A stretch of DNA of 64,000 nt from Marinicella sp. (GCA_965230295.1 OZ246001.1:352001-416000), one strand, 5' to 3'. Positions 24,801-44,061 are shown, counted from the first letter of the stretch. The notes: a model not told the origin generated them from the sequence alone. A program made the numbers and translations.

Positions 24801-24834
24801 CTGGGGAATTACCTGAGGATCAGTCCCTCACAGG

Positions 24835-25680: not shown

Positions 25681-25691
25681 CTCATCACCCG

Positions 25692-26753: not shown

Positions 26754-28030
26754 TTTCTGAAATCAGTAAAGGGCTGAATCACCACTGTGTCACCAGCAAA
26801 CAAGTCCTGTTGAGACTCATTCAAAACGATGAAGCAGTTGGCTTGTGACAATGACTCAATGCGACTGGATTGTTGGCCGCCGCACACAGACACTTGTAGG
26901 CTGCCTTGGTGGTCAACTTCAAACATACCGCGCATGTACTCGCGACGCAAATGTGATTTTTTGATGTCATGTGCCAACATGGCTCGCCAGCTGGTCAAAT
27001 GTGGTGCCTGTTGAGTCATAGATTGGATGGCTGGAAAAACGTACTGACACAGGGTCGTGTAGCTGGAAACAGGGTTACCCGGTAAACCGTAAAACAAGGA
27101 TTGTCCGAGTTCGCCGAATAACAGAGGAAAACCTGGTTTAATGCGCAATTTATGGAACACCACTGTTCCCTGTTGTGACAAGGCTTTGGGTATCCAATCC
27201 TTCTCGCCCATAGAAACACCTCCAACCGTAATGATGAAATGAAATGCTTCTTTTGCCAAGTCTTCAAGTCTTCGATTGACCGCTTTTTCTGAGTCTTCTA
27301 AGGTCTGAAACAAAGTCACTTGACAGCCCATTTCTTGCAACAAGTGACTTAACATCACCGAATTGCTGTCATAAATCTGTCCCGCAGCACAGGGGTTACC
27401 TGGCTGAACCAATTCATCACCTGTCATCATCAACGCAACCCTGGGCTTGGATAACACTTGTACTTCAGCAATACCAAGTGATGACAGCAACCCCAAACTG
27501 GCGACACACAAATCCTGATTGGCTTTGACCACTGTTTGACCCAGTTGCAAATCTGAACCTGAAGTACGTATGTATTCACCCTTCTTAGGCAATTTGTCAA
27601 AGTACAAGGATCCTTCCTTTACTTGCCCGTGTTCTTTGAGGACAATGCCATCAGCGTCGACTGGCAACAAGCCCCCTGTCATAATGGGTAAAGCCATTTC
27701 ATCACAACTCAACTGCCTTGATTGTTTGGCCGCATGGATCGGTTGGCCAATTTTAAGCACATACTCTGTTGGTCTTGAAGTATTTGCTGTATCAGTTTGG
27801 TTGGCCTGAATTTCAGACAAATTGATGGCATAACCATCCATGCTGCTACAGGCGGCAGAAGGCACATTGATGGGGGCGGTAATGGCTGTCGCAGTTGTTC
27901 TGCCAAAAGCATCTGCCAATGCAATGGTTTCATGCGTGCTTGTTAGTTTTTCTGCGTGCTGGATAATCAGCTTGATCGCCTGACTGTGATTCAGGGCCTG
28001 ATTACGATTGTTTGGTTTCACCGTTGTCAT
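26744..28030 (-). CDS. moeA: Molybdopterin molybdenumtransferase MoeA
   Basis: SSMDGYA, IMTGG, TGDEL, IYDSN, GGVSMGEKD, GLPGNPVS. Start set at ATG 28030. Confidence 0.95.
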   Translation of the reverse strand: MTTVKPNNRNQALNHSQAIKLIIQHAEKLTSTHETIALADAFGRTTATAITAPINVPSAACSSMDGYAINLSEIQANQTDTANTSRPTEYVLKIGQPIHAAKQSRQLSCDEMALPIMTGGLLPVDADGIVLKEHGQVKEGSLYFDKLPKKGEYIRTSGSDLQLGQTVVKANQDLCVASLGLLSSLGIAEVQVLSKPRVALMMTGDELVQPGNPCAAGQIYDSNSVMLSHLLQEMGCQVTLFQTLEDSEKAVNRRLEDLAKEAFHFIITVGGVSMGEKDWIPKALSQQGTVVFHKLRIKPGFPLLFGELGQSLFYGLPGNPVSSYTTLCQYVFPAIQSMTQQAPHLTSWRAMLAHDIKKSHLRREYMRGMFEVDHQGSLQVSVCGGQQSSRIESLSQANCFIVLNESQQDLFAGDTVVIQPFTDFRKCQ

Positions 28031-28074
28031 GGAATAATTTAAAAATGACCACAAAAAATGTGGAAGATGTCATT

Positions 28075-29478
28075 TTAACTGTTGTGTTTGTGTTTGGGTA
28101 AATTATGCGCTTTTTTTCTGCGTGAGGGGTACTGGTTGTCTGGATTTTTCTTATCTTTATAAGGGTTTTTACCATCTCTGAATTGCATGATGATTGGCAC
28201 ACCTTTCAGTTCAAATGCTTTCCTGAATGTATTTTCCAAATACCTTTTATAAGATTCTGGCAACTTGGTGGTTCGCTTACCATGAATGACTATTCGCATG
28301 GGGTGATTACCACCAGAATGGGCAAACTTCAACTGAGAACTTAAGCCTTGTACCAAGGGCGGCTGATGGGCTTTATAGGCTTCATTCAATACGTTGGTTA
28401 GTTGATTGGCAGACAATTCCTGATCGGCTTTATCCATCAACAAGTCAACCCGTTCCATCAACACCCGCAAACCTGATCCATGTAATGCCGAAATATACAA
28501 CAATGGCACCCACTCGAATGCTTGCATTTTCAGGTTGATTTTTTCTTTGACGTAATTGCGGTGGTCTTCACTTAAGTTATCCCATTTATTGATCACTAAA
28601 ATAACTGGCTTGGCATGGTATACAGCCAATCCTAACAAGTGTAAGTCCTGATCCGTAATGCCTTCTGTGGCATCCATCATCACCACACAAATTTGTGATA
28701 ACTTAATGGATTCAATGGTTTTAAGGATACTGAATTTTTCAATGCCCTCCCCAATTTTTGATCGTCGCCTGACACCGGCAGTATCAATCAAAGTGTATGG
28801 TAGATCGTCCCAAATCAAAGGCAAGGATATGCTGTCTCTGGTGGTGCCAGGCATGTCATATGCCAGCACCCTGTCTTCTCTGAGTAACCGATTGACCAAA
28901 GTCGACTTGCCGACATTGGGTCGGCCAATGATGGCAATTTTAGGACCATGATCTTCTATCACTTCTGCAGTGAACGCTGCTTCATTGGCTTTGAAAAAAT
29001 CATTCAAATAAAGTTTCAAATCACCCAAGCCTTTGCGGTGTGCTGAACTGACTGCCAAAAGGTCAACCACGCCCAATTGATAGAATTCTGCCAACGCCAT
29101 CTCATTGACCTGACCTTCGGCTTTGTTGGCCAAAAGTAAAATGGGTTTGGCTGCCATTCTTATACGCTCTAATATGCGTTCGTCATCACCCACCAATCCT
29201 TCTCTGGCACTGACCACAAACAGCACCAAATGTGCTTCTTCGATGGCCTGGATGATTTGTTGATCCATCAACTCTGTGAGCTCACCCTCATCACCCAACA
29301 TGCCGCCGGTATCAATCAGTGTGGTTTTGAAATCGGCCAACTCAAGTTCACCATATTGGCGGTCTCGGGTTAAACCTGGCATGTCTGCCACCAATGCATC
29401 ACGCGTATTGGTTAAAGCATTGAACAGTGTTGATTTACCAACATTCGGACGGCCAACTATGGCAATAACAGGTGTCAT
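28075..29478 (-). CDS. der: Ribosome biogenesis GTPase Der (EngA)
   Basis: Two GTPase domains, each with GRPNVGKSTL; DTGG/DTAG, NKWD; C-terminal KH-like domain. Confidence 0.98.
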   Translation of the reverse strand: MTPVIAIVGRPNVGKSTLFNALTNTRDALVADMPGLTRDRQYGELELADFKTTLIDTGGMLGDEGELTELMDQQIIQAIEEAHLVLFVVSAREGLVGDDERILERIRMAAKPILLLANKAEGQVNEMALAEFYQLGVVDLLAVSSAHRKGLGDLKLYLNDFFKANEAAFTAEVIEDHGPKIAIIGRPNVGKSTLVNRLLREDRVLAYDMPGTTRDSISLPLIWDDLPYTLIDTAGVRRRSKIGEGIEKFSILKTIESIKLSQICVVMMDATEGITDQDLHLLGLAVYHAKPVILVINKWDNLSEDHRNYVKEKINLKMQAFEWVPLLYISALHGSGLRVLMERVDLLMDKADQELSANQLTNVLNEAYKAHQPPLVQGLSSQLKFAHSGGNHPMRIVIHGKRTTKLPESYKRYLENTFRKAFELKGVPIIMQFRDGKNPYKDKKNPDNQYPSRRKKAHNLPKHKHNS

Positions 29479-29492
29479 GTGGCCTCATCAAT

Positions 29493-29666
29493 GGAAAGCA
29501 GCACAGCAGCTAGACCCGCCGAGTCGGTTGGCGAGCGAAGCGAGTCAGAGACGAAGAGCGTGAAATAGGGAGACATGCTCGCCGTGGTCGCTTTCATTTT
29601 AGTCGAGAACACTTCGGTTTCGCTCAGTACGAACAAAAATGAATGAAGACCCAAGAGCATTCCTTA
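29493..29666. repeat. Modular structured interspersed repeat, short copy (174 bp)
   Basis: Shares four colinear blocks with 45753-46173 (32/37, 13/14, 27/31 and 24/26 nt identical); sits between bamB and der. Confidence 0.85.
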
Positions 29667-29667
29667 G

Positions 29668-30801
29668 TTATTTAGTGAATTGCAAAGCACTGAGTGTGCC
29701 ATCATAATTGTAGGCATAAATCATGTCGCCTACAATCAAAGGCGCATGGTAAAACTGATCTCCGCCAACACGAGTGCGGTTGATGATGTCACCTGAAACA
29801 CCATCAACGATGTGTAAGTAACCTTCAAAATCACCCACCACCAGATCACCTAAGTAGAAACTGGGTTTGGTCACGTTTCTATTCAACAATTGATCCTGGC
29901 TCCAGCCACGAGATCCATCAGCGCGGTTCAACTGGTGTAGCACTGATTGATTATCAGACAAATAAATGGAACGCCTGGATACAGTAACACCTGTGACTGA
30001 TCCAATATTTTGACTCCACAATGCACGCCCTGATTCTGTGGCCACTGACATGGTTTTGTCTGCTGCACTGGATATATATAAGTCGGTTGCCACCACATCA
30101 ATATCACCATCAATGTCCGCAATTCGGTCGATCTCTGTCTTGCCTTGGCTGTTGATCACATTTTGCTGCCACAGCACAGATCCATCTAAAATGTTTAACG
30201 CAGCAACCTTGCCATTGTCAAAGCCGATGTAGATGCGGCCACCTTTGGCTATCGGGGTACTGTTTCCTCGTAAAGTCAAATTTGGGATGTTGGTGTCAAA
30301 ACTCCAATCCCGCTTACCAGACTGAATGGCGAATCCATAAACCCTACCATCTTGGGTTCTCACCACCACTTTATTGCGATCAATCACTGGTGGGCTCAGT
30401 ACTTCTGAAGTCACACTGGTTTGCCAAAGTACTGTACCAGAATCAATGTCCATGGCCACCACCTGACCTTCAGGACCACCGACCACCAGAACCGTGTCAC
30501 TCACACCTGGGCCGGCGCTGATCTCAGACTCAAGGTCATGTTCCCAGTTGATTCCACCGGTTTTGGCATCTAGGCTGTATACTTTTCCTTTCTGGGTTGC
30601 TACGTACAAATTACCATTTTTCTCAGCAGGTATTAATTTGTAACCAAAAGCTTTTTCAGAAGCAGAAAAATCACGTTTCCAAACAGACTTGATGTTGCCT
30701 TGTTCAGTGACATCGATCAATTCACTGGGTTTAATCTCATCTTTTTTGTTTCCACAAGCAACTAAAAGCAACAGTAAAAAATAAATGGGTAGACGTTTCA
30801 T
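29668..30801 (-). CDS. bamB: Outer membrane protein assembly lipoprotein BamB
   Basis: Lipobox LVAC after MKRLP (ATG 30801); PQQ-like beta-propeller repeats; LTLRGNSTP, EIDRIADID; yfgM-bamB-der synteny. Confidence 0.93.
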   Translation of the reverse strand: MKRLPIYFLLLLLVACGNKKDEIKPSELIDVTEQGNIKSVWKRDFSASEKAFGYKLIPAEKNGNLYVATQKGKVYSLDAKTGGINWEHDLESEISAGPGVSDTVLVVGGPEGQVVAMDIDSGTVLWQTSVTSEVLSPPVIDRNKVVVRTQDGRVYGFAIQSGKRDWSFDTNIPNLTLRGNSTPIAKGGRIYIGFDNGKVAALNILDGSVLWQQNVINSQGKTEIDRIADIDGDIDVVATDLYISSAADKTMSVATESGRALWSQNIGSVTGVTVSRRSIYLSDNQSVLHQLNRADGSRGWSQDQLLNRNVTKPSFYLGDLVVGDFEGYLHIVDGVSGDIINRTRVGGDQFYHAPLIVGDMIYAYNYDGTLSALQFTK

Positions 30802-30862
30802 GAGCACCTCTGGTATCAATATTTTATATGGGTCTGGAATGTATCGGTTTCATTAACCACTG

Positions 30863-31498
30863 TTAATTGGTGGTTTTGATGTCTGCCAATTTCATCTCAA
30901 TGATTTGTTTTCCAGAATAGCCCTCACCTTCATTAAGAGCCAGCTGGTATGCATCAATGGCTTTGGCAGCATCGCCCTGAGCCACATAGATGTCACCAAT
31001 AACTTCTTCGACAATGGTTTGGTAAGCTTTGGATTGCACCAACCCCAATTCAGCCAAGGCAGTGGTGTATTCACCTTCAGAAACCAACAATCTGGCCAAT
31101 CTTAAACGCACCATTTCGGCAATTGGTTTATCAGGTTTGGCTGCAATCAACAATTCATATTGAGCTTTGGCTGCAGCGATGTCATTGGCTTCCACCAGTT
31201 TATTGGCTGCATTCAGCCTGGCTTGAATGGTATAGATGTTATTGCCATAATTATTTTCATATACGGTGATCAATTTTGGTGCATCAGCAGCCTCAATGAC
31301 CGAAAGTGCCGCTTCAAGTTGGGTGAACTCTGTGGCTGCTTCTTGGTTTTGTAAACTTCTGTTGTCCTGCCATTTGCCATAACCCCATAAGCCGCCAATA
31401 CCTAATGCAATTCCAGCGATTATGGTGAACCAGTTTTTACTCAGCCATTCCTTGACCAACTGTTCTTGTTCAAAATCATCATATTCTTCAAATGCCAT
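30863..31498 (-). CDS. yfgM: YfgM-family TPR ancillary SecYEG subunit
   Basis: EQEQLVKEWLSKNW, one TM, RLRLARL, EVIGDIY; upstream of bamB. Confidence 0.92.
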   Translation of the reverse strand: MAFEEYDDFEQEQLVKEWLSKNWFTIIAGIALGIGGLWGYGKWQDNRSLQNQEAATEFTQLEAALSVIEAADAPKLITVYENNYGNNIYTIQARLNAANKLVEANDIAAAKAQYELLIAAKPDKPIAEMVRLRLARLLVSEGEYTTALAELGLVQSKAYQTIVEEVIGDIYVAQGDAAKAIDAYQLALNEGEGYSGKQIIEMKLADIKTTN

Positions 31499-32730: not shown

Positions 32731-33519
32731 ATGTCACCAGAACAAAACATTGCCAAAAAAGCCGCACTGAAAGCCGCCAATTCCATAGAACAACTGATGT
32801 TCAAGAATGAACTGCTTTCGGTCAATAAGAAGCTCAACAATGGTTTTGTGGATCAAGCCATAAAAGTCAGCTTGAATGATATATTTTATACCCTCAAAAG
32901 GGCTTATCCAGAAGATGAAATTCAAACCGATGGCGAGACTTTAACTGAGTACACCAATCCAGAACGTGTGTGGTTGATCAATCCATTGATAGGCGTCACT
33001 AATTTTTTACATGACATCCCACATTGCGCCATCAGCATCACCTTTATGGAAAACAACAAAACCAAAGAAGCCTTGGTTTACAACCCCATCACCGATGATG
33101 AATACATGGCAGGTAAAGGCAAAGGTGCTTTTCTGAACCAACGTCGCTTGCGCATCAGTAATCAAAATGAGGCCGAAGAATCGTTCATAGGTACCAACTA
33201 TGCAGATGAGAAGAGTAAACTGGCCGCACAGTCTTTGGCCATGAGGACCATAGGCAAGCAAGTCGCAGATGTTCGTGTCATGGGCTGCCCCGCCTTGGAT
33301 TTGGCTATGGTCGCTGCCGGAAAGTTCAATGCCTATTGGCAAATGGGCATGTCACCATCTGAAATGCTGCCTGGCATATTGTTGGTTGAAGAAGCCGGTG
33401 GACAATGTATGGATTTTGCCGCCAAAAGGGCTTTTACAGACAACCAACAAATGGTGGCAGGTAACCTGAAGGTATCAGCTTGGCTGTCGGCACAGCTGAA
33501 AAATATTTACAGCCAATAA
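32731..33519 (+). CDS. suhB: SuhB/inositol monophosphatase-family protein with degenerate active site
   Basis: Colinear with SuhB (NIA..AA.KA, TNFLHDIPH, GKGAFLNQRRLR, ALDLAMVAAG, LLVEEAGG) and in the conserved trmJ-divergent position, but DPLDGT reads NPLIGV. Confidence 0.88.
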   Translation: MSPEQNIAKKAALKAANSIEQLMFKNELLSVNKKLNNGFVDQAIKVSLNDIFYTLKRAYPEDEIQTDGETLTEYTNPERVWLINPLIGVTNFLHDIPHCAISITFMENNKTKEALVYNPITDDEYMAGKGKGAFLNQRRLRISNQNEAEESFIGTNYADEKSKLAAQSLAMRTIGKQVADVRVMGCPALDLAMVAAGKFNAYWQMGMSPSEMLPGILLVEEAGGQCMDFAAKRAFTDNQQMVAGNLKVSAWLSAQLKNIYSQ

Positions 33520-33521
33520 AA

Positions 33522-33549
33522 AAGGCACTGTTACCATCAACAGTGCCTT
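33522..33549. terminator. Hairpin between convergent suhB and DUF4252 genes
   Basis: AAGGCACTGTT-ACCATC-AACAGTGCCTT, with an A-run on its left (U-tract on -). Confidence 0.7.
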
Positions 33550-33614
33550 ACATTGCGATACAGAACTTCGTTAAACAGCTGACTTAGGTGGTCACCTAAG
33601 AGGCTCAGTTCGAA

Positions 33615-34133
33615 TCACAAATTCAAAGTCAGACCTTTCAAACCGTCAACATCCACATTGAAGTTTTTGGTCAAGTCTTTCAGATTTGCGACATCAATTT
33701 CTCCATCCATGCTGATGAATACGAACTCATCCCCGGCTTCAAAGACCATGATGGATAAATCGCTCAATGTCATGCCATCAACTTTGGCCATGATGTGAAC
33801 ACGCTCATCGCCTTCGACCACTTTAACAATTTCTTCAACACCATTGCGAGCCAAAGCACTGACAGTATCACTCATCCAATCACTGATGTCAGCGGCATCA
33901 ACCGCATCAGTTAACTCATACACTTTGATCGACAAGTCGTTCAATCCGGACAACACCGCTTGTGCTTCTGGGTCATCTGCAGACAGCATTTTGGCCATGC
34001 CTAACATGCCAGGGCCCAAAGTGATTTTCACATTGGCTTCAACGCCCAAGATACTTTCTAGCTCATCAAAATCTCTGGCCCAAGAACTGACTGAGAACAG
34101 ACATAAAATCAAAACCATCATTAACTTTTTCAT
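33615..34133 (-). CDS. DUF4252-family secreted protein
   Basis: Signal peptide; VKITLGPGML, IVKVVEGDERVHI, EFVFISMDGEID pattern. Confidence 0.72.
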   Translation of the reverse strand: MKKLMMVLILCLFSVSSWARDFDELESILGVEANVKITLGPGMLGMAKMLSADDPEAQAVLSGLNDLSIKVYELTDAVDAADISDWMSDTVSALARNGVEEIVKVVEGDERVHIMAKVDGMTLSDLSIMVFEAGDEFVFISMDGEIDVANLKDLTKNFNVDVDGLKGLTLNL

Positions 34134-34275
34134 ACATTTACCTCAATTAAAATTTGCTATCCGCCATGGATTTATGTCTATCAAACGAGCTTTGATTGTG
34201 TTTGTTACAAAAAACAGCCACAGAAATCGCTTAAATTGATCAAATGCACAAAACCTATTAAAATAATAGCTTAAC

Positions 34276-34303
34276 TTAGCACCTATTTAAAAATAGGTGC
34301 TAA
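34276..34303. repeat. Perfect 13-bp inverted repeat inside the transposon left end
   Basis: TTAGCACCTATTT-AA-AAATAGGTGCTAA, flanked by two shorter palindromes (34255-34269 and 34303-34319). Confidence 0.85.
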
Positions 34304-34389
34304 TCAATTACTAATTGATAATATATTCAATAGGCCGTCCAAATTACCCAGTTGCCTCAGAAAACCATCTCCCAATAGACTTATACATA

Positions 34390-34806
34390 TTAAGTGTTCT
34401 GAATTTTATTTTTGATTTTTTCTTTTATTTTGACCAAATCAATAATAAGAATGTAAGAATCTAACTTTTCAAAAATCATAGATGAAAGTTCGTCTTTATC
34501 AAGAATTTCTATAGACTCATCATTAAGAGCAAAATATTGATGTTTTTCATCTAATGATTGCCATTCTATTTTTTTTTCTTTGTACGTTTCGAGATGCTTT
34601 TTGATTTTAGTAATTGACATTCCTGTATTAGTTAATGATTTTAGGCAAACAAGTAACATTAAATCACTATAAGAATATCGTCTTCCAACACCTTTCTTGC
34701 CAGAAGTCAAACTAGCTTCCAAAATTGAATGCCGCTGATAATAATGAAGCATATGGACGCTATGCCCTGAAATTTTTGATGCTCTTTCTGTACTTACTGT
34801 TTCCAT
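34390..34806 (-). CDS. MerR-type HTH transcriptional regulator
   Basis: ASKISGHSVHMLHYYQRHSIL...GVGRRYSYSDL...L..L...GMSITKIK MerR winged-HTH pattern. Start set at ATG 34806; the ORF track start at 34842 lies inside the promoter palindrome. Confidence 0.85.
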   Translation of the reverse strand: METVSTERASKISGHSVHMLHYYQRHSILEASLTSGKKGVGRRYSYSDLMLLVCLKSLTNTGMSITKIKKHLETYKEKKIEWQSLDEKHQYFALNDESIEILDKDELSSMIFEKLDSYILIIDLVKIKEKIKNKIQNT

Positions 34807-34811
34807 ACTGA

Positions 34812-34851
34812 ATATTATAATTGAGTATTGAGCAATACTCAATTATAATAT
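34812..34851. promoter_or_regulatory. Perfect 19-bp inverted repeat forming two overlapping divergent sigma70 promoters; probable operator
   Basis: ATATTATAATTGAGTATTG-AG-CAATACTCAATTATAATAT. On +: TTGAGT (34821-26)-17 nt-TATAAT (34844-49). On -: TTGAGT (34842-37)-17 nt-TATAAT (34819-14). Confidence 0.85.
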
Positions 34852-34900
34852 AATTACAAATATGTGGTATAAACCCTATCTAATTTGAACAGGAGATGTA

Positions 34901-36106
34901 ATGTCATCATTCCGTTACATGGGAACAAAGAAATACTTAGCAACGAAAGTAAAGCGTTCTATCGACATTGCTTCTAAGCATGGGCAAATGGCCGATTTGT
35001 TTTCTGGCATGGGGGCTGTTGCTCGAGAATTTTCCTCAGAACGTTCTGTCTTTTTAAATGATGCAATGACATTTCCTACTGTCTGTTCTAAAGCATATTT
35101 TTTAGATAATGACCTGAAAATTAACGATCATTTAATAAAAGAAATTTATTCATTGTTCAGTAGGCACAGGGCTTTGCTAAGGTCAAAGTTTGAAAGGAGA
35201 ATAAAGCAAGAAAAGAAAGCTGTTCTTGGTGGAAGCGAATCTTTGAATGATTGGATGCTCCAGGCTCCACATGTTGGCAATAGCACACATTACAACAATA
35301 TGAAGAATGCTGCTAAACTAGAGTCTGGGCCATTGAATTATCAACTGATAACTTTATATTTTTCAGCTTCATATTTTAGCACTTCTCAAGCAATTGACCT
35401 TGATGCTTTAAGATACGCAATTGAATCCTTGTCTAAGAGGGATGGTAAATCTCCATTAATAGCAGTTTGGTTATCAACTGCAAGTGTTTTGATTAATGCT
35501 CCAGGTCATTCTGCCCAATTCTTAAAACCAAACAACGATTCCTCTTACAATAAAATATGCAGAGGCTTAACGCGAGACGTTTGGGCGACATTTGTTGACT
35601 TGTTGAGCAATTTTTCTCCTTGTGGAAGTCTATCATGGAGAAAAAGTAATAAGGTTTCTAAGAGTGATGTTTTAAAATTACTGGATGTTGGTCTTCCATC
35701 AAACGTATCTGTAGTTTACGCCGACCCACCTTATACTGGAGACCAATATTCAAGATATTATCACGTTTTTGAAACCATGTTGTTATACAACTATCCAACA
35801 TCAAAGGGATGTGGAAGGTATCCTGAAGGTAGGTTTACCTCACCATTTTGTTTAAAAACAAAAGTAGTTGACTCATTTGAACAAATGTTTTGTAGGATTA
35901 TTGACCACTCCGTTCCGCTTGTATTATCCTATCCATCAAACGGATTATTGTCCAAAGTGGGGGTCGATATTATTGAACTAGCAAATGACACCTTTAGGAA
36001 AATTGATAAAGCTGAAAGCCAAATCAATCATTCGACAATGGGAGCTTCCAAAGGAGCTCAAAAAAAATCTGTTAAAGAATATATATTGACATGTTACCCT
36101 GCATAA
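34901..36106 (+). CDS. N6-adenine DNA methyltransferase, alpha class (MethyltransfD12/COG3392, M.NlaIII/M.FokI-N-like)
   Basis: Motif X YMGTK, motif I DLFSGMG, motif IV YADPPY followed by QYSRYYHVFET; AGGAG RBS upstream. Confidence 0.92.
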   Translation: MSSFRYMGTKKYLATKVKRSIDIASKHGQMADLFSGMGAVAREFSSERSVFLNDAMTFPTVCSKAYFLDNDLKINDHLIKEIYSLFSRHRALLRSKFERRIKQEKKAVLGGSESLNDWMLQAPHVGNSTHYNNMKNAAKLESGPLNYQLITLYFSASYFSTSQAIDLDALRYAIESLSKRDGKSPLIAVWLSTASVLINAPGHSAQFLKPNNDSSYNKICRGLTRDVWATFVDLLSNFSPCGSLSWRKSNKVSKSDVLKLLDVGLPSNVSVVYADPPYTGDQYSRYYHVFETMLLYNYPTSKGCGRYPEGRFTSPFCLKTKVVDSFEQMFCRIIDHSVPLVLSYPSNGLLSKVGVDIIELANDTFRKIDKAESQINHSTMGASKGAQKKSVKEYILTCYPA

Positions 36107-36122
36107 ATACAAAGGAGTTCCA

Positions 36123-37043
36123 ATGAGTGATCTTGAAACATTAGAAATTAGCCAAATAGAAAGAGATCCGCATAACCCAAGAATAAACTTCCCTCAAAAT
36201 GAGCTAAATAAATTATCTGAATCAATTGATAAAGCAGGTGTTTTAGTCCCAGTGGTTGTTTATAAATATAAAGATAAGTATCGACTCTTGGACGGAGAAA
36301 GAAGGTGGAAATGTTGCAAAAAACTCGGTTTGACGAAAATACCAGTAATTATTATTGGAGAGCCAACTGAGGAAGATCGATTAACTTGGATGTTTAACAT
36401 TCATCAGGTACGAGAACGTTGGCAAGATATGCCAACAGCATTGGCATTAAAGAAACTGGTAGATGAAACCGGCATTACAGATAAGAAAGAATTAAGCAGG
36501 CTAACTGGATTATCTTCAAAGCTCGTAGATCAATATCTTTATATTGTAGAACTCCCTCAAGATATGCAGGATAGTATTGCAAATAAAGATATGGCAATGA
36601 ACTTTTTCTGGGAGTTGAAACAAGTTTTGGAAAACCTAAAGAAAAAGAGGCCTAATATTTATAATGACTATGAAGCTGACGAGCTCATGAGAAAATTTGT
36701 GGATAAAAGAGCAAGTAACGTCATTACTGATACAGTCTCACTTCGTAACGCCAATTATATTATTCAAAAAGCATCAGAAGATGATCCTGAAAATATCAAA
36801 GAAGGAGAATTGGATGAAGTAATCAGGGACATGATAGATGACGAAAGTAAGTCAGTTAACGATGCATATGAAGAAACTGTTATGGTTGCTGTTGAGCTTG
36901 ACAAACTGTTAACAAAATCTATGTCTGTTGTTAAGGCATTCACAAGATTATTAGGAAAAGCTCAAGAAGAGCAAGAACGCTTAGAAATTAAGAATATTGG
37001 TAATCAGATTATTAAACAACTTGACACAGCATTAGACAATTAA
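36123..37043 (+). CDS. ParB/Srx N-terminal-domain protein
   Basis: PHNPRINF...LSESIDKAGVLVPVVV...YRLLDGERRW, followed by an HTH-like segment (ELSRLTGLSSKLV) and a helical C-terminus; no parA nearby. Confidence 0.88.
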   Translation: MSDLETLEISQIERDPHNPRINFPQNELNKLSESIDKAGVLVPVVVYKYKDKYRLLDGERRWKCCKKLGLTKIPVIIIGEPTEEDRLTWMFNIHQVRERWQDMPTALALKKLVDETGITDKKELSRLTGLSSKLVDQYLYIVELPQDMQDSIANKDMAMNFFWELKQVLENLKKKRPNIYNDYEADELMRKFVDKRASNVITDTVSLRNANYIIQKASEDDPENIKEGELDEVIRDMIDDESKSVNDAYEETVMVAVELDKLLTKSMSVVKAFTRLLGKAQEEQERLEIKNIGNQIIKQLDTALDN

Positions 37044-37933
37044 TGAGTGAAAGCAATGAGAAATACTTGGATGCTCTGCTTAAATGTAAGTCAGTAAGTT
37101 CATGCGTTATTCCTGATAGCCCGATCATTTTTTCAAATACCGCATGGACTCCCGATGCTATATGCAAAATAAATAATAAGGATACATTGGTATGTATTCA
37201 CTCAGTAGATGATGAAATCCCACATTTTCTAATTAAAAGGTTGCTGGCAACAGAAACATCTGATTATCAAGTATTAATTATTACTGGTTACAAAATTCTA
37301 AGAAATCTTGAACATTTTAAAAAACTTTTAAAAATCAATTCACTGGTATCATTTTATGGCTATCAGTCAGAGCTTATGACTGAACCTGAGAATATTGCAT
37401 TAGCCGTTGCAAAATCAAATATCAAAGTCAAAAGGGAACTACTACTTTATTTACTTGAGTTAAGCCGAAATGCTGAGACAAGTTGGGATAAAGGTAAAAG
37501 GTTTGAGCAATTGTTGTGTCTCTTTTTTTCCCAAATAGAAGATTTTCATATTTTTAGCTCAAACTACAGAACTGAAACGGAAGAAATTGATGTAGTTATT
37601 CAAATACGTGAAAGTTGCTCTACGCGATGTTGGGCGAGATTTGAAGCACCTTATATTTTTATTGAGGCAAAAAATCAAGCGAGCAAAGTTGGCCAGCGTA
37701 TTATTTCGACACTTATAGGAATATTGTCTGTAAAAGGTTTTTCAACAAAACTAGGAATAACTATTTCTATGAATGGATTTACAGCGGATGCAAAAACTCA
37801 AGCACTGAGAAATAGCGATGCGCAAAAAAAAATAATTTTGTTAACAGCTGATGAAATCGACACATGGATTCAAACAGGACGTTCACTAGATGATCAGCTT
37901 GAACAGAGAATTAGCGAAGCATTGATTGATTAA
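37043..37933 (+). CDS. Mrr-like PD-(D/E)XK restriction endonuclease
   Basis: KGKRFEQL...EEIDVV...FIEAKN...ISMNGFT pattern of Mrr_cat; TAATG stop/start overlap with the ParB gene. Confidence 0.85.
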   Translation: MSESNEKYLDALLKCKSVSSCVIPDSPIIFSNTAWTPDAICKINNKDTLVCIHSVDDEIPHFLIKRLLATETSDYQVLIITGYKILRNLEHFKKLLKINSLVSFYGYQSELMTEPENIALAVAKSNIKVKRELLLYLLELSRNAETSWDKGKRFEQLLCLFFSQIEDFHIFSSNYRTETEEIDVVIQIRESCSTRCWARFEAPYIFIEAKNQASKVGQRIISTLIGILSVKGFSTKLGITISMNGFTADAKTQALRNSDAQKKIILLTADEIDTWIQTGRSLDDQLEQRISEALID

Positions 37934-38004
37934 GTCGGGACTACTACAGATTAAGATAGTTACCTATAAAGCAGCTTACGAAATTCAATAGTGCCTTAAT
38001 TAAG

Positions 38005-38928
38005 TTATAGAATATCTAAGAGTTCTGAGTACAAATATTCATCATCTTTACCTTCATAGTATAGCCTTATAAATTTGTTTCTTTTTTTTAAACTTAATCC
38101 CATGAATTTCATATAATGTTTTAGCATCGTTCCCTTATATGGTGGGTGAAACTCCATACAAACACCTTCAATAATAGAAAACACTTTATTCATCTTTAAA
38201 AAATCTTTCTTTATCCTGGTTAGGTCTTTTGTAACTGTTAATTGGCTAAAAGTAACTTTTCTTCGCCAAAAGTTGGTAAATCTTTTTTTGCACATAAAGT
38301 ACAACAACATATACTCCTCACTGAATCCAAAAACACTAAAACAAGCAAAAGAATAATCAAATATCTTTTGTAAAATTAAATCTCTATTGGCAAGGTTGTT
38401 GTCAATTTCTGACTTCATTAATAACAGCATAAATGATGACAACGCTTTTTGAATATCAGTGCCAGTAAATTTATCGATTTGACCTTCTAAATTTTGAGTA
38501 TCTATACTGTAAACATCACCATCTAAGTTCAAAAGGTCAATATACACTTTTAAATCTTTTATATTCCTACCCAAGTCATCGATGTCTGAATCATCCTTAA
38601 CATCAGCTAAAAACCAGTCCCAAATTGGCATATCAAAAATATCTCTGGAACCAGGGAAATAATATTCAGTGTATTTCAATGTTTTTTCGTTTGGGCATGG
38701 CGGATTTGCAGAGTTAACATATTTCTGGTATTTACTCGTTGCGTTGTAAACCTGATTCTTTTCGCTTTTGTTATATGCACGTTTTTTACTTTTTTTTCTT
38801 AGAAATGAGTGCGACTCAAATTTTTCACCATAATTTATAATCGCTCGAATTTGGTTACCATTTCTACAGTTGCCTATCATCATGACAGTAGAAATCCAAA
38901 CTTTTATCTTTAATTGCAATAAATTCAT
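38005..38928 (-). CDS. Hypothetical protein (transposon-borne)
   Basis: 307-aa AT-rich ORF with no recognised motif; divergent from the small HTH gene. Confidence 0.6.
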   Translation of the reverse strand: MNLLQLKIKVWISTVMMIGNCRNGNQIRAIINYGEKFESHSFLRKKSKKRAYNKSEKNQVYNATSKYQKYVNSANPPCPNEKTLKYTEYYFPGSRDIFDMPIWDWFLADVKDDSDIDDLGRNIKDLKVYIDLLNLDGDVYSIDTQNLEGQIDKFTGTDIQKALSSFMLLLMKSEIDNNLANRDLILQKIFDYSFACFSVFGFSEEYMLLYFMCKKRFTNFWRRKVTFSQLTVTKDLTRIKKDFLKMNKVFSIIEGVCMEFHPPYKGTMLKHYMKFMGLSLKKRNKFIRLYYEGKDDEYLYSELLDIL

Positions 38929-39063
38929 GAAAATATAGTAGCGTATATTTATATGTATTTCAGTTACTTATCTCTATGAAGTATACTTTTAAGAAGTAAA
39001 AGGAACCTTCTAAATCGCGATTATTATCACTAAAATAATATAGATGTATAGGAGTGACTTGAC

Positions 39064-39318
39064 ATGACCAAGAGCGAATTTAGAGACTATATTGAGGAGA
39101 AGTTAATCAGTGAGCACGGCATCCTCATTTCGGGTGAGGCTTTAGCAAAAGTGCTGGGGTTCAATTCGAAGGCTGCATTCAGAAAAGGGGTTGAACGAGG
39201 AACCGTTGAAATTCCTATCATGACATTCAAAAACAGGAGAGGCAAATTTGCTGTTTCTTCAGATGTGGCTGAATGGATTACAAATAACCGGTTTGATTCA
39301 TTGGAGAGTAGCAAATGA
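39064..39318 (+). CDS. Small DNA-binding protein (excisionase/PrtN-like HTH)
   Basis: AGGAG RBS; ALAKVLGFNSKAAFRK...G...IP...RRGKF...DVAEWI pattern typical of small mobile-element regulators. Confidence 0.7.
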   Translation: MTKSEFRDYIEEKLISEHGILISGEALAKVLGFNSKAAFRKGVERGTVEIPIMTFKNRRGKFAVSSDVAEWITNNRFDSLESSK

Positions 39319-39561
39319 ACTAAATCAGCAAGAGAAGAAATGAAAAAACCAAATGGTTGCAGCCATTTGGTTTAATCGGTTGTCATTAATTAACGAATCA
39401 AGACAATAATCCGATTATAGCATTTCCGAACCTCATTTTGTCAAGACAAACAAGCTATTTTGATAGCTTGATAAGCCTTCTTTTGCATTTTAAAAATATG
39501 GCTGCGCGAGGCTAAGCAGTCATCAAATTGGAGAATATCATGTTAATGATCCAAAACTATA

Positions 39562-40653
39562 ATGGAGGAATTTATGCCTCAAAGCTATAGACAATCGAGT
39601 AAGAGAAGAAATATCACCCTTAATGATATTTACAAAATGTCAGAACAAGAAGCAATAAATTTCATTGCAAACATTAGGTGGGGTTCAAAAACAAAGCAAG
39701 TGTGTCCCAATTGTTGGGTTTTCGACAAGCATTATTCTAAGAAGAAAAGAAACCAGTGGGTATGTAAACATTGCAATCATACATTCAGTATTACATCTAG
39801 CACTGTATTCGCTAACAGAAAATGTAGTGTCAAAAAAATATTGAAACTATTATTTATATTTTGCAATTCTGCCAAAGGCACAAGTGCCAATGAATCCACT
39901 GGTTTTCTTGGTTTGAGCCATAAGTCTATTTGGTTATCTAACCATAAGATCAGAGAAGGATTACTTAGATCTAGAGATTTAAGTCAATTGAACGGTATGG
40001 TACATGTTGATGGTGCTTTTTTTGGTGGCAAAAGACGCCATGGACGTATTCGAAATTACAAGATCGCTCACAAGCATTTTGAAGCAAAGATTGCTTCCAA
40101 AGGTAAGAAGAAATTACCTATGAATGCGATTCAGCGTCGAAATGCCTATATTAGACGGAAGAACAGAAGGGTCGTTATGGTATTTCGTGAAGTTGATCCG
40201 ACCAAAGGAATCGGAGCTGTGAAAACTAGAGTAACTGTTGTTCGAAATGAAAGCGAAGATTCAGTCAAGCCACATACTGAGAGGTTTATCCAAGCGGGCA
40301 GTACTGTTTGGACTGATGAGCATAAAGCGTATAATCACTTGTCGAAACAACATAGGCATGAAACAGTTGAACATTCAAAAGAATTTATGACTAAAGATGG
40401 GGTTCACAACAATCATGCTGAGTCGTTTTTCTCGAGGCTAAGAAGATCTGAGTATGGTGTATTCCATGGCATGAGGCCTCAGTACATGATTGATTACGCC
40501 AATGAAATGTCATGGCGGGAAGATATGCGTAGAAAATCTCTGCTAGAACAATTATCAGATTTAATTGTTAGAGTGTTTTCGGTTGGTGAATCAATCTGGT
40601 GGTGCGGTTATCACCAGGGACATCGACGCAATGATGAATTGTTAAACTTTTAA
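39562..40653 (+). CDS. IS1595-family DDE transposase (likely start ATG 39574 after GGAGG)
   Basis: IRW...CPNC...CKHC zinc ribbon with FSITSSTVF; HTH; VHVDGAFFGG, VWTDEHKAY, VEHSKEF, HNNHAESFFSRLRR..YGVFH, YANEMSWR. Confidence 0.95.
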   Translation: MEEFMPQSYRQSSKRRNITLNDIYKMSEQEAINFIANIRWGSKTKQVCPNCWVFDKHYSKKKRNQWVCKHCNHTFSITSSTVFANRKCSVKKILKLLFIFCNSAKGTSANESTGFLGLSHKSIWLSNHKIREGLLRSRDLSQLNGMVHVDGAFFGGKRRHGRIRNYKIAHKHFEAKIASKGKKKLPMNAIQRRNAYIRRKNRRVVMVFREVDPTKGIGAVKTRVTVVRNESEDSVKPHTERFIQAGSTVWTDEHKAYNHLSKQHRHETVEHSKEFMTKDGVHNNHAESFFSRLRRSEYGVFHGMRPQYMIDYANEMSWREDMRRKSLLEQLSDLIVRVFSVGESIWWCGYHQGHRRNDELLNF

Positions 40654-41133
40654 TCTGTACTTTCGAAATGGGCCTTTGTAGCCTTTGGGCATTCTTTCAA
40701 TGACTCCCTGGTTACAAAGGTTCTTTACCCTATACCTGACAGAATTATTCAAAGAGTCATCGGTGACATTTACTTTTAGTTTTATACTGCCTTTAGTAGC
40801 AACAAAGAGACTTATCTGCGTTATGGTTCCACAGCCATCATTAAATGTATCAAAACTATCATAGATAAGTTTTGTTAACTCCCCATGATTTAATTTAGAT
40901 CCTAAGACTTGAGGCTGTTTGGGTGGAATAATTTCAGGCGAAATTTTAATATCATGTAGGCTAAGTGTCCTATCAATGGCTTGTAAATCATATTTTAGCT
41001 CAGAAATTTTCTGTTTAGTCCATTGTAGATAAATTGATCTTTCCCTCTCAATACGGTTCAATTCACCATGTGTTTCAGCACGTTTCTTTATAAGCCAGTT
41101 TAACGAAGAAGGGATACGATTTGCCATAGACAA
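40642..41133 (-). CDS. Hypothetical protein, coiled coil plus probable winged helix (transposon right end)
   Basis: LIKKRAETHGEL...DLQAIDRTL coiled coil; C-terminal RYRVKNLCNQGVIER..G..R.YRL wHTH-like; 3' end overlaps the transposase by 12 nt. Confidence 0.7.
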   Translation of the reverse strand: MSMANRIPSSLNWLIKKRAETHGELNRIERERSIYLQWTKQKISELKYDLQAIDRTLSLHDIKISPEIIPPKQPQVLGSKLNHGELTKLIYDSFDTFNDGCGTITQISLFVATKGSIKLKVNVTDDSLNNSVRYRVKNLCNQGVIERMPKGYKGPFRKYRLKV

Positions 41134-41193
41134 ATTGTATCCCTTGAACTGAAATAGAGCTATGTGCGTATGCTCAATTTAAGCGACAGAAAT

Positions 41194-41218
41194 AAAAAAA
41201 GCCCGAATAATCGGGCTT
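41194..41218 (-). terminator. Rho-independent terminator of yajC-secDF
   Basis: AAGCCCGA-ATAA-TCGGGCTT with an A7 run on +; abuts the transposon target duplication. Confidence 0.85.
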
Positions 41219-41246
41219 CTTCATGATTCTATTATTTGGCTCCTGC

Positions 41247-42197
41247 TTATGGAATATGATCCAGATTAGCGCCTTCTTTCTCCACCGGGATCAAATCTTC
41301 ACGGCTGATACCCAAAGCCAAAGTGGTGGTACTGGCCACGAATATTGAAGAATACGTACCAATGATCACACCCACAATCAGGGCAAAAGCAAAACCATGG
41401 ATCAAAGCACCGCCAAAAAAGAACAATGCCAACAACACCAACATGGTGGTGAATGAGGTGATCACTGTTCTGGACAGGGTCTGGCCTATGGATTTGTTGA
41501 TTACTTGCTCTGTAGTTGACTTGCGACCTTTGCGGAAGTTTTCCCTGATGCGGTCAAACACCACAATGGTGTCATTCAAGGAGTAACCAATCACTGCAAG
41601 CAATGCTGCCAGTACTGTTAAGTCGAACTCCACTTGCCAGATGGAAAACACCCCAGCGGTGATCACCACGTCATGAACCAAGGCTGCAATGGCACCCAAA
41701 GAAAAGCGCCACTCAAATCGGATGGTGACATAGATCAAGATGCCGATAATGGCATATAACAATGCCAAAGAACCTTGTTCCACCAATTCATCGCCTACTT
41801 GTGATCCCACATAATCGACTTTTGATACTTCAGCCGAGCTGTCCAATTGTTTCAGAACACCCAGAATTTCATTACTTAACTTGGCTTCATCAACACCTGC
41901 ATCGGCCTCAGATTCACCTTGGGGTGGCAAAGTGATTTCGATGTCCGTGCTGGCCCCAAAATTTTTAACCACTGAATTATCGTATCCGTTGTTTTCAAGC
42001 TGTGTTCTGATGTCGGTGATGACTGCGGGTTGATCAAACTTCACCACCACGACCGTGCCACCGGTAAAGTCCAACCCAAAATTCAATCCTCTGGTGACCA
42101 AAGACCCCAAAGCAACCACAATCAAAGTCAGTGATAAAAACATCGCTGCCTTGCGGTGCCCCATGAAATCATACTTAATATTTCCTAATATATTCAT
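41247..42197 (-). CDS. secF: Protein translocase subunit SecF
   Basis: GLNFGLDFTGG, VGSQVGDEL, ALVHDV, GYSLNDTIVVFDRIREN. Start set at ATG 42197. Confidence 0.97.
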   Translation of the reverse strand: MNILGNIKYDFMGHRKAAMFLSLTLIVVALGSLVTRGLNFGLDFTGGTVVVVKFDQPAVITDIRTQLENNGYDNSVVKNFGASTDIEITLPPQGESEADAGVDEAKLSNEILGVLKQLDSSAEVSKVDYVGSQVGDELVEQGSLALLYAIIGILIYVTIRFEWRFSLGAIAALVHDVVITAGVFSIWQVEFDLTVLAALLAVIGYSLNDTIVVFDRIRENFRKGRKSTTEQVINKSIGQTLSRTVITSFTTMLVLLALFFFGGALIHGFAFALIVGVIIGTYSSIFVASTTTLALGISREDLIPVEKEGANLDHIP

Positions 42198-42207
42198 TAT
42201 CGACTCC

Positions 42208-44061
42208 TTATATGGCAATTGACTGCAGTTTTTTCTTGCGACCATAAATCAAATTAACAATCGCTCTGGACAACACAATGGCGGTGAACATGGAAGTCAC
42301 GATCCCAACACTCAAAGTAACGGCAAAACCTTTAATGGGCCCAGTACCAAAAGCAAACAACACCACCGCTGCAATTAAGGTGGTTACATTGGCATCAGCA
42401 ATGGTTGAAAAAGCCTTGTCGTAACCTGCTTTGATACTACCCTGTATGGTATTTCCTTCCCGAATTTCTTCTTTAATCCGTTCAAAAATCAACACATTGG
42501 CATCCACTGCCATACCAACGGTCAAAACAATTCCGGCTATTCCCGGCAGGGTCAGTGTGGCACCAAACAATGACAAACAGGCCACCATCAGTACCACATT
42601 GATGGTCAATGCGATGTTGGCAATGACACCAAACATGCGGTAATAAATCAGCATAAACACCAACACCATGGCCAAACCAATTTGCACAGATACCACACCT
42701 TTATCGATGTTGTCCTGACCCAAAGAAGGCCCAATGGTGCGTTCTTCGACAATTTGAACGGGCGCGGCCAAAGCTCCCGCTCGCAATAACAAGGCCAATT
42801 CAGCGGCTTCTTTTTGGGTGAAACCACCCGTGGTCTGGAAGCGGTTAGAAAACACGCCATTGATACTGGCGTTACTGATCACTTCTTCTTTGTCTCGGTA
42901 TTGCATTTCACCGGCTTCATTTTTACCAATGGGAATGCGTTCTTTAAAAACCACACCCATGAAATTGCCTACATTGTTCTTGGTGAAATCCAACATTCTG
43001 GCAGCGCCAATGCTGTTGAGTTGTACATTCACCGCATGTTGTCCGGTCTGCTGATCAATGGTGGCCTGGGCCCCGGTTAGCTGATTACCCGTTGCGATGA
43101 CCCTGTTTTTCAGATAAATCGGCTGACCATTGGACTCAAAGTACAAAGTGCTTCCAGGGGGTGTTCTTCCTGTTTGATAGGTTCTTTGTGCTTCTGCATC
43201 AAAACTGTGTGTGGCCCGGTATTCTAAAGTGGCGGTGGCGTCTAAGATATTCTTCGCAACTGTGGTGTCCTGAACACCTGGCAATTGGACCACAATGCGA
43301 TCCAAACCTTGACGTTGAATGATGGGCTCAGCCACTCCAATTTCATTCACCCGGGTTCTTAAAGTGGTTAAGTTCTGATTCAGCGCATTTTCCTTGATGC
43401 TATTTAAAGATTGTTCACTCAATAAGCCTGTGAGCGTATATGAATCAGCACTGATGTCTTCACTGATTGACAATTCTGTGAAGTCGTCTTCAATCAGATC
43501 TTTGGCTTGGGTTAAACCAGCTTCATCCCTGAATCCAATCACCAAGCGATTGGCTTCCCACTTGAGTGATTTCTTAGGGATTTTCTGCTTGATCAATAAA
43601 GCGGTGATGTCAGAACGAATTTGTTTTTTCTTGTTCTCTTCTGCTTTGCTCATATCCACTTCTAACAAGAAGTGGACACCACCACGCAGATCAAGACCCA
43701 GGTTCATGGCACTGCCGCCCAAATTTTCCAACCATTCAGGTACATTGGGTTTTAGATTCATCGCCGTATCAAATCCAGCCAGATCCCGTTTCAACAGATC
43801 CTGTGCTTGTCGTTGACTGTCCAAGTCAGCAAATTTCACAATGGCCGTCTCCCCATCAATTGACACTTCATCAAAAGCAATTGATTCTTCACTCAGTAAG
43901 TTGGTTACTTTATTCAGTGTCGGCTGGGATACGGGCACATCTTCCTTGGCTTTGATTTGCACCACAGGGCTTTGGCCGTAGATGTTGGGTAAGGCATACA
44001 ACCCGCCAAAAGCCACTATCACCATCACCAAGATGTATTTCCATGCAGGATATCGATTCAT
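42208..44061 (-). CDS. secD: Protein translocase subunit SecD
   Basis: MNRYPAWK, LGLDLRGGVHFLLEVD, RIVVQLPG, IGPSLG, GMAVDANVLIFERI. Confidence 0.98.
   Translation of the reverse strand: MNRYPAWKYILVMVIVAFGGLYALPNIYGQSPVVQIKAKEDVPVSQPTLNKVTNLLSEESIAFDEVSIDGETAIVKFADLDSQRQAQDLLKRDLAGFDTAMNLKPNVPEWLENLGGSAMNLGLDLRGGVHFLLEVDMSKAEENKKKQIRSDITALLIKQKIPKKSLKWEANRLVIGFRDEAGLTQAKDLIEDDFTELSISEDISADSYTLTGLLSEQSLNSIKENALNQNLTTLRTRVNEIGVAEPIIQRQGLDRIVVQLPGVQDTTVAKNILDATATLEYRATHSFDAEAQRTYQTGRTPPGSTLYFESNGQPIYLKNRVIATGNQLTGAQATIDQQTGQHAVNVQLNSIGAARMLDFTKNNVGNFMGVVFKERIPIGKNEAGEMQYRDKEEVISNASINGVFSNRFQTTGGFTQKEAAELALLLRAGALAAPVQIVEERTIGPSLGQDNIDKGVVSVQIGLAMVLVFMLIYYRMFGVIANIALTINVVLMVACLSLFGATLTLPGIAGIVLTVGMAVDANVLIFERIKEEIREGNTIQGSIKAGYDKAFSTIADANVTTLIAAVVLFAFGTGPIKGFAVTLSVGIVTSMFTAIVLSRAIVNLIYGRKKKLQSIAI

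Follow-up and report, generated by a model that had tools for sequence, protein, structure and literature searches.

A probable passenger-carrying IS1595-family transposon beside the secF terminator in a Marinicella chromosome

Positions 34228-41185 of a 64,000-nucleotide stretch of the chromosome of Marinicella sp. (GCA_965230295.1 OZ246001.1:352001-416000) very probably constitute one transposable element of 6958 bp, a passenger-carrying "transporter" insertion sequence (IS) of the IS1595 family, and we put the probability of this reading at about 0.85. The whole 64-kb stretch is referred to here as the window, and coordinates are those of the window unless a contig of a genome is named. A gene-level annotation of the region would give a lone IS beside an unexplained island, and it is the resolved ends that show a single unit. 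One IS-type transposase would thus move 7 kb of DNA in this genome and, in the sister species Marinicella meishanensis, 19 kb or more, with restriction-modification-type and other cargo, and this could provide one route for the spread of defence genes between marine bacteria with no phages or plasmids visible.

The element carries eight non-overlapping open reading frames (ORFs) of at least 80 amino acids (aa). In the mechanism that we propose, the single DDE transposase would bind both 23-bp ends, 6.9 kb apart, and the whole unit would have been inserted via a staggered 8-bp cut, located immediately beyond the T-tract of the secF terminator and on the upstream side of the promoter region of a DUF4252 gene, such that no gene was broken. 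The right third of the element (orf307, orf84, the transposase gene and orf163) would represent a recurring set, consisting mostly of DNA-binding companions, while the left half would be exchangeable cargo, with a MerR-type regulator and its palindromic operator followed by an operon for a methyltransferase, a ParB-like protein and an Mrr-type nuclease. Current activity, the chemistry of movement (cut-and-paste versus copying) and the factor recognising the terminator are points on which we infer rather than observe.

Delimitation of the element

Direct reading of the ends revealed two identical 8-bp copies of ACAGAAAT, at 34220-34227 on the left and 41186-41193 on the right. Immediately inside them lie the terminal inverted repeats, IRL at 34228-34250 (plus strand), which begins CGCTTAAATTGA, and IRR at 41163-41185 (minus strand), the latter recognised both by direct reading and in an inverted-repeat search; the left end matches the reverse complement of the right at 20/23 positions and the first 12 are identical. 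A first-pass annotation of this DNA, made from the sequence alone, had proposed 23-bp ends with a perfect 8-bp duplication, eight internal ORFs and a left end about 5.3 kb from the transposase gene. The ends were confirmed to the base and the eight ORFs were recovered, and the transposase gene, which starts at 39562, lies 5334 bp from the left end. A genome-wide search for the ends, also suggested there, located the exact 12-mer CGCTTAAATTGA at the element's own two ends only, both in the window and in the whole 4.0-Mb genome. No further copy was found in the window at up to one mismatch, and the genome yielded no further 23-mer end at up to four mismatches except for one chance-like site at C1:2222483. 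We also considered a composite or nested structure, which is unsupported, extra or internal ends being absent in these 12-mer and 23-mer searches.

Inverted ends and a flanking duplication could, in principle, occur by coincidence around an island that was acquired by another route, and a looser version of our end finder does generate chance pairs, with 32 hits in 200 shuffles and one extra pair in the window (22960-31198; 13/30 identity, dismissed as chance), so that the loose rule alone is unconvincing. However, a strict version, requiring at least 19/23 identity, identical first 6 bases, a perfect duplication of 8 bp on the two outer sides and ends 0.7-25 kb apart, returned a single pair in the window, the ends of the element, against 1 hit in 300 block-shuffled windows. 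Moreover, the ends coincide exactly with a break in synteny and with a drop in G+C content, which is 0.30-0.39 within the element and 0.41-0.47 outside it, the genome value being 0.44. Family-profile searches detected no integrase or other mobility gene inside the element besides the transposase, which belongs to a family stated to make 8-bp duplications (PMC8101967), and relatives with homologous ends occur elsewhere. Coincidence is consequently an extremely remote prospect, and we consider it effectively refuted.

A contig from a public sequencing run spans 33000-42600 unbroken and with zero differences, although this run possibly derives from the source sample and hence is not independent support. 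The whole stretch is present in that run (share 1.00) with no empty-site joint, and such contigs cannot reveal rare excision; a single joint listed there, with a 21-letter side and on another contig, was treated as noise.

The secF-DUF4252 site in the genus

The distance between the start of the left duplication and the start codon of the DUF4252 gene, at 34133, is 86 nt. At the other end, the intrinsic terminator of secF, which is host DNA, was detected by an independent scan at 41195-41222 on the minus strand (41222->41195), and its T-tail runs into the duplication. A hairpin occurs at the same position after secF in relatives.

A search of 24 Marinicella genomes, including that of the window, gave matches in 23 (22 of the 23 others). 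In 11 other Marinicella species (G002, G003, G004, G007, G009, G010, G014, G016, G018, G020 and G022) a single contig carries both the DUF4252 gene and secF, separated by no more than 315 bp, and in the seven intergenic regions that were inspected the secF terminator comes immediately after a block conserved upstream of the DUF4252 gene. The element was not seen at this site in any of the 23 other genomes searched; apart from the 11 species and two genomes discussed below, G015 and G017, the flanks were on separate contigs or just one flank matched. The proposal in the first-pass annotation that insertion had occurred between the secF terminator and the DUF4252 gene, disrupting no ORF, is therefore borne out by the adjacency of the neighbours in 11 other species and by the intergenic position. 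Cargo at this locus lacking the ends or the transposase, which had been named as evidence to the contrary, was seen in 0/23 other genomes. The further expectation of an empty site in relatives held with respect to the adjacent flanks in those 11 species, but the single copy of the 8-mer could not be read at base level because the flanks differ by 16-34% between Marinicella species. The closest empty site, that of M. meishanensis, reads ..ACAGCCACAAAAAAGCCCG.. as compared with ..ACAGCCACAGAAAT[element]ACAGAAATAAAAAAAGCCCG.. in the window.

The block upstream of the DUF4252 gene, at 34160-34212, has the form ..ATCCGCCATGGATTTAT..ACGA..TTGTTACAAA.. and is conserved in 7/7 of the relatives printed. 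Read on the DUF4252 strand, it resembles a promoter of the extracytoplasmic function (ECF) sigma type, with GTAACAAA, about 16 nt and CGTT. Since the left end of the transposon lies about 15 bp upstream of this conserved block, the DUF4252 promoter was probably left intact by the insertion.

In two genomes other genes separate secF from the DUF4252 gene, occupying 5.8 kb in G017 (locus L105, G017:C90 1066-6903) and 1.7 kb in G015 (locus L106, G015:C242 2274-4014). They include two without a Pfam match, an ATP-grasp protein, an S41 peptidase and an AraC regulator, and no transposase. The idea that the locus constitutes a hot spot for the element was rejected on these grounds, and the interval is variable for reasons apart from this transposon.

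A second element in Marinicella meishanensis

The genome of M. meishanensis (G004) carries a related element at a different site, encoding a transposase and an orf163 protein that are 66% and 72% identical, respectively, to those of the window. Its right end is followed by GTGGTTGA. Its left end, found at the edge of another contig, has GTGGTTGA in front of it, with a terminator immediately before, which gives this element a perfect 8-bp duplication of its own. The two ends match at 19/23 positions with the first 12 bases identical. In the genome of the window the outer flanks of the two contigs are neighbours, at C1:3489950 and 3490232, and the terminator there is uninterrupted. As the flanks are adjacent reciprocally, each genome provides the uninserted counterpart of the other's site.

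If the two contigs abut, the M. meishanensis element extends over at least 18,979 bp. It contains the same cassette of regulator, methylase, ParB-like protein and nuclease, with 49, 68, 74 and 57% aa sequence identity, respectively, inverted with respect to the transposase as compared with the window, together with extra cargo comprising an astacin, an S8 subtilase, a metallo-beta-lactamase-fold protein and several unknowns. Elsewhere in the genus the cassette was thus seen just once, and there too inside an IS1595 element with ends and a duplication of its own. A further relative, in genome G009, is cut by a contig end and retains the same right end and the transposase-orf163 gene pair.

Transposase and classification

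The transposase gene (39562-40653, plus strand) encodes an uninterrupted protein of 363 aa, assigned to the IS1595 family with both Pfam and NCBIfam. A zinc ribbon (PF12760, E 1.2e-10, profile positions 2-46 of 46) is combined with a DDE domain matched over its full length (PF12762, E 3.8e-37, profile 1-153/153), and the score against NF033547 was 129.7 bits (cut-off 75). A single ORF with no frameshift is present, the open frame extending over 367 aa without internal stops. Residues C48, C51, C68, C71, D150, D252, E287 and R294 are invariant across 22 transposase sequences, and E287 and R294 sit in HNNHAESFFSRLRR, with the arginine seven residues after the glutamate.

Searches yielded 287 transposase relatives at E up to 1e-3, and the best was 93% identical and occurred on 9 contigs. 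A 66%-identical protein is encoded in Kangiella sp. TOML190, the best plasmid match is 33% identical and the viral contigs contained one distant relative, also at 33%. The label given to these relatives at NCBI is simply "IS1595 family transposase". From a scan of metagenome contigs 80 loci were kept, and the end and duplication finder applied to all loci produced 35 rows, of which 7 were dropped and 28 kept, the window's included. These 28 delimited elements range from 2,995 to 13,840 bp and each contains a transposase homologue. Their ends begin with CGG in 20/28 cases and with CGC in five, including that of the window, whose transposase shows 31-35% identity to those of the CGG-ended elements and 40-66% to a closer set with CGC-ended members. 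The left part is variable and, in the four nearest metagenomic relatives, encodes an Eco57I-like methylase, C5 methylases, a GHKL ATPase and a 2003-aa AAA protein.

For IS1595 members, 8-bp duplications and an N-terminal zinc finger, the latter in all groups except IS1016, are described (PMC8101967), and passenger-carrying transporter IS elements are recognised, among them the IS1595-family member ISNha5, which carries transcription regulators (PMC11891212). The element in the window resembles the ISNha5 group in having one transposase with a zinc ribbon and a DDE domain, short inverted ends, an 8-bp duplication and kilobase-scale passengers of the regulator type. Members of that group in ISfinder are 3.45-7.9 kb long, have ends beginning CGG..TT and share a catalytic signature of D, D and E followed by R or K seven residues on; both the length of 6958 bp, with seven further ORFs, and the spacing of E287 and R294 conform to this. 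The ISNwi1 group also consists of IS1595 elements that were enlarged by passengers and make 8-bp duplications, but they are smaller, at about 1.75-4.75 kb, and differ in their ends. Terminator-adjacent landing and restriction-modification cargo were not met in the descriptions of ISNha5 consulted, which did not include that of 2009.

We therefore assign the element to the IS1595 family and, on sequence features, provisionally class it as ISNha5-like, a term already used in the first-pass annotation together with the call of a single IS1595 transposase; the latter is upheld by the full-length domains and the former agrees with the size, the passenger genes and the kinship to CGG-ended elements. 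It is filed as ISNha5-like, rather than as a member of the ISNha5 group, because its ends miss the CGG motif. Passenger-carrying transporter IS, or the ISNha5 group of the IS1595 family, were reportedly described by Siguier, Gagnevin and Chandler in 2009; the kind of element has been known since then and the present one is an ordinary example.

The insertion may be real and the element nevertheless be a fixed, inactive relic which resulted from one horizontal transfer and one transposition. Its single copy in the genome and the three mismatches between its ends would fit such a history, which we nonetheless consider unlikely, given an uninterrupted transposase that has kept all the invariant catalytic and zinc residues, a perfect duplication, and the occurrence of a 93%-identical transposase on 9 other contigs and of an 87%-identical orf163 on 12. 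In addition, M. meishanensis carries a related element at a different site, flanked by a perfect duplication.

Insertion next to transcription terminators

The location next to a terminator is shared with related elements. For the ten closest, defined by a BLASTP E-value up to 3e-59 for their transposases against that of the window, the printed flanks show a G+C-rich hairpin and a T-run at or across the duplication in 10/10 cases. When a terminator was defined by rule, as a hairpin with 5 or more pairs and an energy of -7 kcal/mol or lower and with 5 or more T among the 8 bases after it, one was found at 9/10 of these sites, and the remaining one, at L031, was missed because its tail has four T only. 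In control positions from the flanks of the ten, the rule covers 8.5% (10,143 of 119,875) and, outside long open frames, 18.7% (1,059 of 5,650). Among 19 more distant elements the rule was satisfied at 4/19 sites, with controls of 5.8% (all positions) and 6.3% (outside long open frames), and because adjacency is weak in this set the terminator preference is not family-wide.

The flanks were also tested unjoined, with a looser tail rule of at least 4 T. Each of the six elements whose transposase identity is 40% or more has an intact hairpin beside it, to the right in four cases and to the left in two, and between its last paired base and the duplication the distance is 1-7 nt. Without exception the T-run is directed towards the element, either end of which can face the terminator. 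For further loci where the right end alone could be placed, 15 of which remained from 20 candidates after removal of 2 duplicates and 3 without a recognisable end, a right-flank hairpin occurs 1-4 nt from the presumed duplication in 7/15, a count without its own control and close to the expectation if the terminator falls on either side at random.

Terminator adjacency could reflect survival rather than targeting, with insertions occurring anywhere and only harmless ones in terminator-rich intergenic regions persisting. All the sites seen are old enough for selection to have filtered them, terminator-like calls reach 18.7% of the control positions outside long open frames, and the distant elements are little enriched (4/19). 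Set against this are the 9/10 sites, far above 18.7%, the narrow spacing of 1-7 nt in 6/6 of the closest elements and 1-4 nt in the 7 one-ended cases, and the constant direction of the T-run, as selection for intergenic positions would not fix the distance. We regard survival as the sole cause as rather improbable, while some contribution from selection against gene disruption there must be, and the landing beside terminators is probably a target preference of the near lineage, since selection against gene disruption would fix neither the spacing nor the T-run direction.

A more specific proposal, to which we give roughly even odds, is that the near lineage actively homes to intrinsic terminators and that the transposase, possibly guided by the conserved coiled-coil/winged-helix protein of orf163, makes its staggered 8-bp cut a fixed few bases past the T-tract, with the element in either orientation. 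Bacterial class C group II introns and REP/BIME-targeting elements such as IS1397 and ISKpn1 home to extragenic hairpins, namely intrinsic terminators and repetitive extragenic palindromic (REP) sequences. They resemble the present element in the use of an extragenic hairpin as a safe harbour, where no gene is broken. However, their machinery is unrelated, with a ribozyme and reverse transcriptase in the introns and IS3-family transposases in IS1397 and ISKpn1, and no membership is implied. If homing occurs, it would explain the cost-free insertion of large elements, give multi-kilobase defence cargo a harmless, transcriptionally insulated landing pad beside almost any gene, and yield a compact DDE system whose target could be predicted and would spare genes. 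No report of terminator targeting by IS1595 elements was found in the literature at the level of search results, and the terminator-adjacent landing of this sub-lineage, together with its conserved winged-helix partner gene, may be new.

Some sites have unusual structures. Three Haemophilus-type elements (L055, L056 and L023) have their duplication in the loop of a long hairpin, whose arms we take to resemble uptake-signal repeats. The folding energy of 60 nt at the site fell at or below the 0.05 percentile level for 7/25 sites. The rebuilt site of L093 folds at -51 kcal/mol in the 60-nt test, and exploratory hairpin scans gave -115 to -145 kcal/mol; its flanks seem to be near-complementary, possibly as a palindromic assembly artefact, and it was retained among the 19 distant elements.

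Passenger genes

The cassette in the left half begins with a gene for a MerR-family helix-turn-helix (HTH) regulator of 150 aa (34390-34842, minus strand; PF13411, E 1.1e-7). Between it and the methylase gene is a perfect 19-bp inverted repeat (34812-34851; 100% complementary with 2 nt between the arms), a likely operator, which is overlapped by divergent promoter-like sites of the form TTGAGT-17-TATAAT on both strands, and this intergenic region is kept in the sister element with 84% identity over 57 bp. The operon then encodes a D12-class N6-adenine DNA methyltransferase of 401 aa with a DPPY motif (34901-36106, plus strand; PF02086, E 4e-13; PADLOC MTase_II, E 1e-25), a ParB-like protein of 306 aa with ParB_N and HTH_ParB domains (36123-37043, plus strand; PF02195, E 4.8e-18; PF17762, E 8.6e-7; TIGR00180, 87.3 bits with a cut-off of 58.45) and a nuclease of 296 aa with a C-terminal Mrr_cat domain of the PD-(D/E)xK type (37043-37933, plus strand; PF04471, E 2e-8, residues 151-276), the start of which overlaps the stop of the ParB-like gene. 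No relatives of the nuclease were found in plasmids, and for the ParB-like protein plasmids provided partition proteins only, with about 30% identity over half of its length.

The arrangement recalls Type II restriction-modification systems with a controller, in which a DPPY methyltransferase stands beside a PD-(D/E)xK-type nuclease, and a small HTH regulator is encoded divergently with a palindromic operator between the promoters. It differs in that the regulator is of the MerR type and not the usual Cro/C1-type controller, in the ParB-like protein placed between methylase and nuclease, and in the generic Mrr_cat nature of the nuclease. The cassette is most likely a restriction-modification-type module, judged by its domains, from which a role in defence may likewise be inferred.

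Alternatively, the cassette may act mainly as an addiction module, through post-segregational killing, or as an epigenetic regulator, rather than in anti-phage defence of the host. Restriction-modification modules are described as selfish addiction cassettes as well as defences (PMC4722110, PMC6471742), the nuclease matches no curated restriction-enzyme model, and a dedicated regulator with a palindromic operator would suit the controlled establishment of an addiction-type module. However, addiction and defence are not exclusive, and the nearest related elements carry methylases, a GHKL ATPase and a large AAA protein, a mix that we judge typical of defence islands. A mainly non-defensive role is a serious possibility but seems to us doubtful.

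A perfect hairpin with a 12-bp stem, at 34277-34302, follows the MerR-type gene and lies immediately internal to the left end. It may terminate the MerR-type transcript or insulate the element, and it was left uncalled by the terminator scan.

Arguments against a single passenger-carrying element

Several of the results weigh against the reading of the region as one transposon with a defence-type cargo. The transposase and the ends occur in one copy only in this genome. The empty site of M. meishanensis, with flanks that are 78-84% identical, does not contain the same 8-mer. The M. meishanensis element is spread over two contigs, and its junction was deduced from synteny and matching ends and not read. 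The ends in the window begin CGCTTAA, unlike the CGG of the ISNha5 group, and the distant elements show the weak terminator adjacency given above (4/19). As regards the cargo, the nuclease matches the generic Mrr_cat profile alone and no PADLOC restriction-enzyme model, with weak PDC-S02 hits only.

Genes accompanying the transposase

The first-pass annotation had read the element as a probably still mobile vehicle for a defence cassette, mobility and defence both being putative. Of the seven genes besides that of the transposase, the MerR-type, methylase, ParB-like and nuclease genes are variable cargo, but orf163 is a hallmark of the subgroup, and orf84 and orf307 recur beside the transposase. 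The orf163 gene (40642-41133, minus strand) is convergent with the transposase gene, and its product was modelled from 26 sequences with a predicted local distance difference test (pLDDT) score of 84; the predicted structure has a long N-terminal helix of 50 residues and then a C-terminal winged helix. Foldseek matches were weak, the best having an E-value of 4.4e-3, and included forkhead, linker-histone, PadR and GntR folds. When the ORFs of delimited elements were clustered (BLASTP E up to 1e-4, single linkage), an orf163-like gene was present in 26/30 elements and missing from L023, L055, L056 and L090, and a profile search placed one just downstream of the transposase gene in 38/55 of the remaining loci. 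The gene is known at 87% identity from 12 contigs.

Directly upstream of the transposase gene is orf84 (39064-39318, plus strand), the product of which gives a weak PrtN/excisionase-like HTH signal (PF11112, E 0.028, below the cut-off), while a homologue on G004:C3 scores E 3.2e-4 against the same profile. It takes this position in four elements, those of the window, M. meishanensis, L024 and L028. Two terminator-like hairpins, at 39346-39373 and 39451-39470, lie between orf84 and the transposase start and could shield the transposase gene from read-through.

An all-alpha protein of a rare family is encoded by orf307 (38005-38928, minus strand; model pLDDT 81), which recurs beside the transposase. 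The family occurs in three elements, those of the window, M. meishanensis and L028, and amounts to 12 representative clusters in 1.84 billion. The protein has no match in Pfam, PHROG, PADLOC or NCBIfam and no usable Atlas hit, and its fold found no convincing match, the best Foldseek E-value being 0.42 and the VIA Z scores of 5.7-7.9 middling. VIA hits of residues 1-104 to HTH domains of the Cro/C1 type reached Z 6.8, below the reliable level of VIA.

A second orf84/orf307 pair occurs in M. meishanensis (locus L016, G004:C3 1526-6802), with 75% and 38% identity, respectively. This pair adjoins Tn7-like tnsA-tnsB-tniB/tnsC genes, with no IS1595 transposase beside it, and the two genes are therefore better viewed as a module that keeps company with transposons than as a strict part of this element.

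Further IS1595 loci

The seven pairs that were dropped from the delimited set comprised L026, L050, L076 3923-12900, L094 13506-19137 and L101 7236-11378, where the ends were identical at 15-17 of 30 positions, L073 5546-11149, with 22 of 30, and L090 4151-5071, a 921-bp pair without a transposase. The last of these has inverted ends matching at 25/30 positions and a perfect 8-bp duplication, lies within another IS1595 locus and is possibly a miniature derivative. The Haemophilus-type elements L055 and L056, both from metagenomes, and L023, from Haemophilus sp. C1, are 6.3-8.6 kb long with near-perfect ends (26-29/30), and each carries two divergent IS1595 transposase genes, one of which is degraded in L023.

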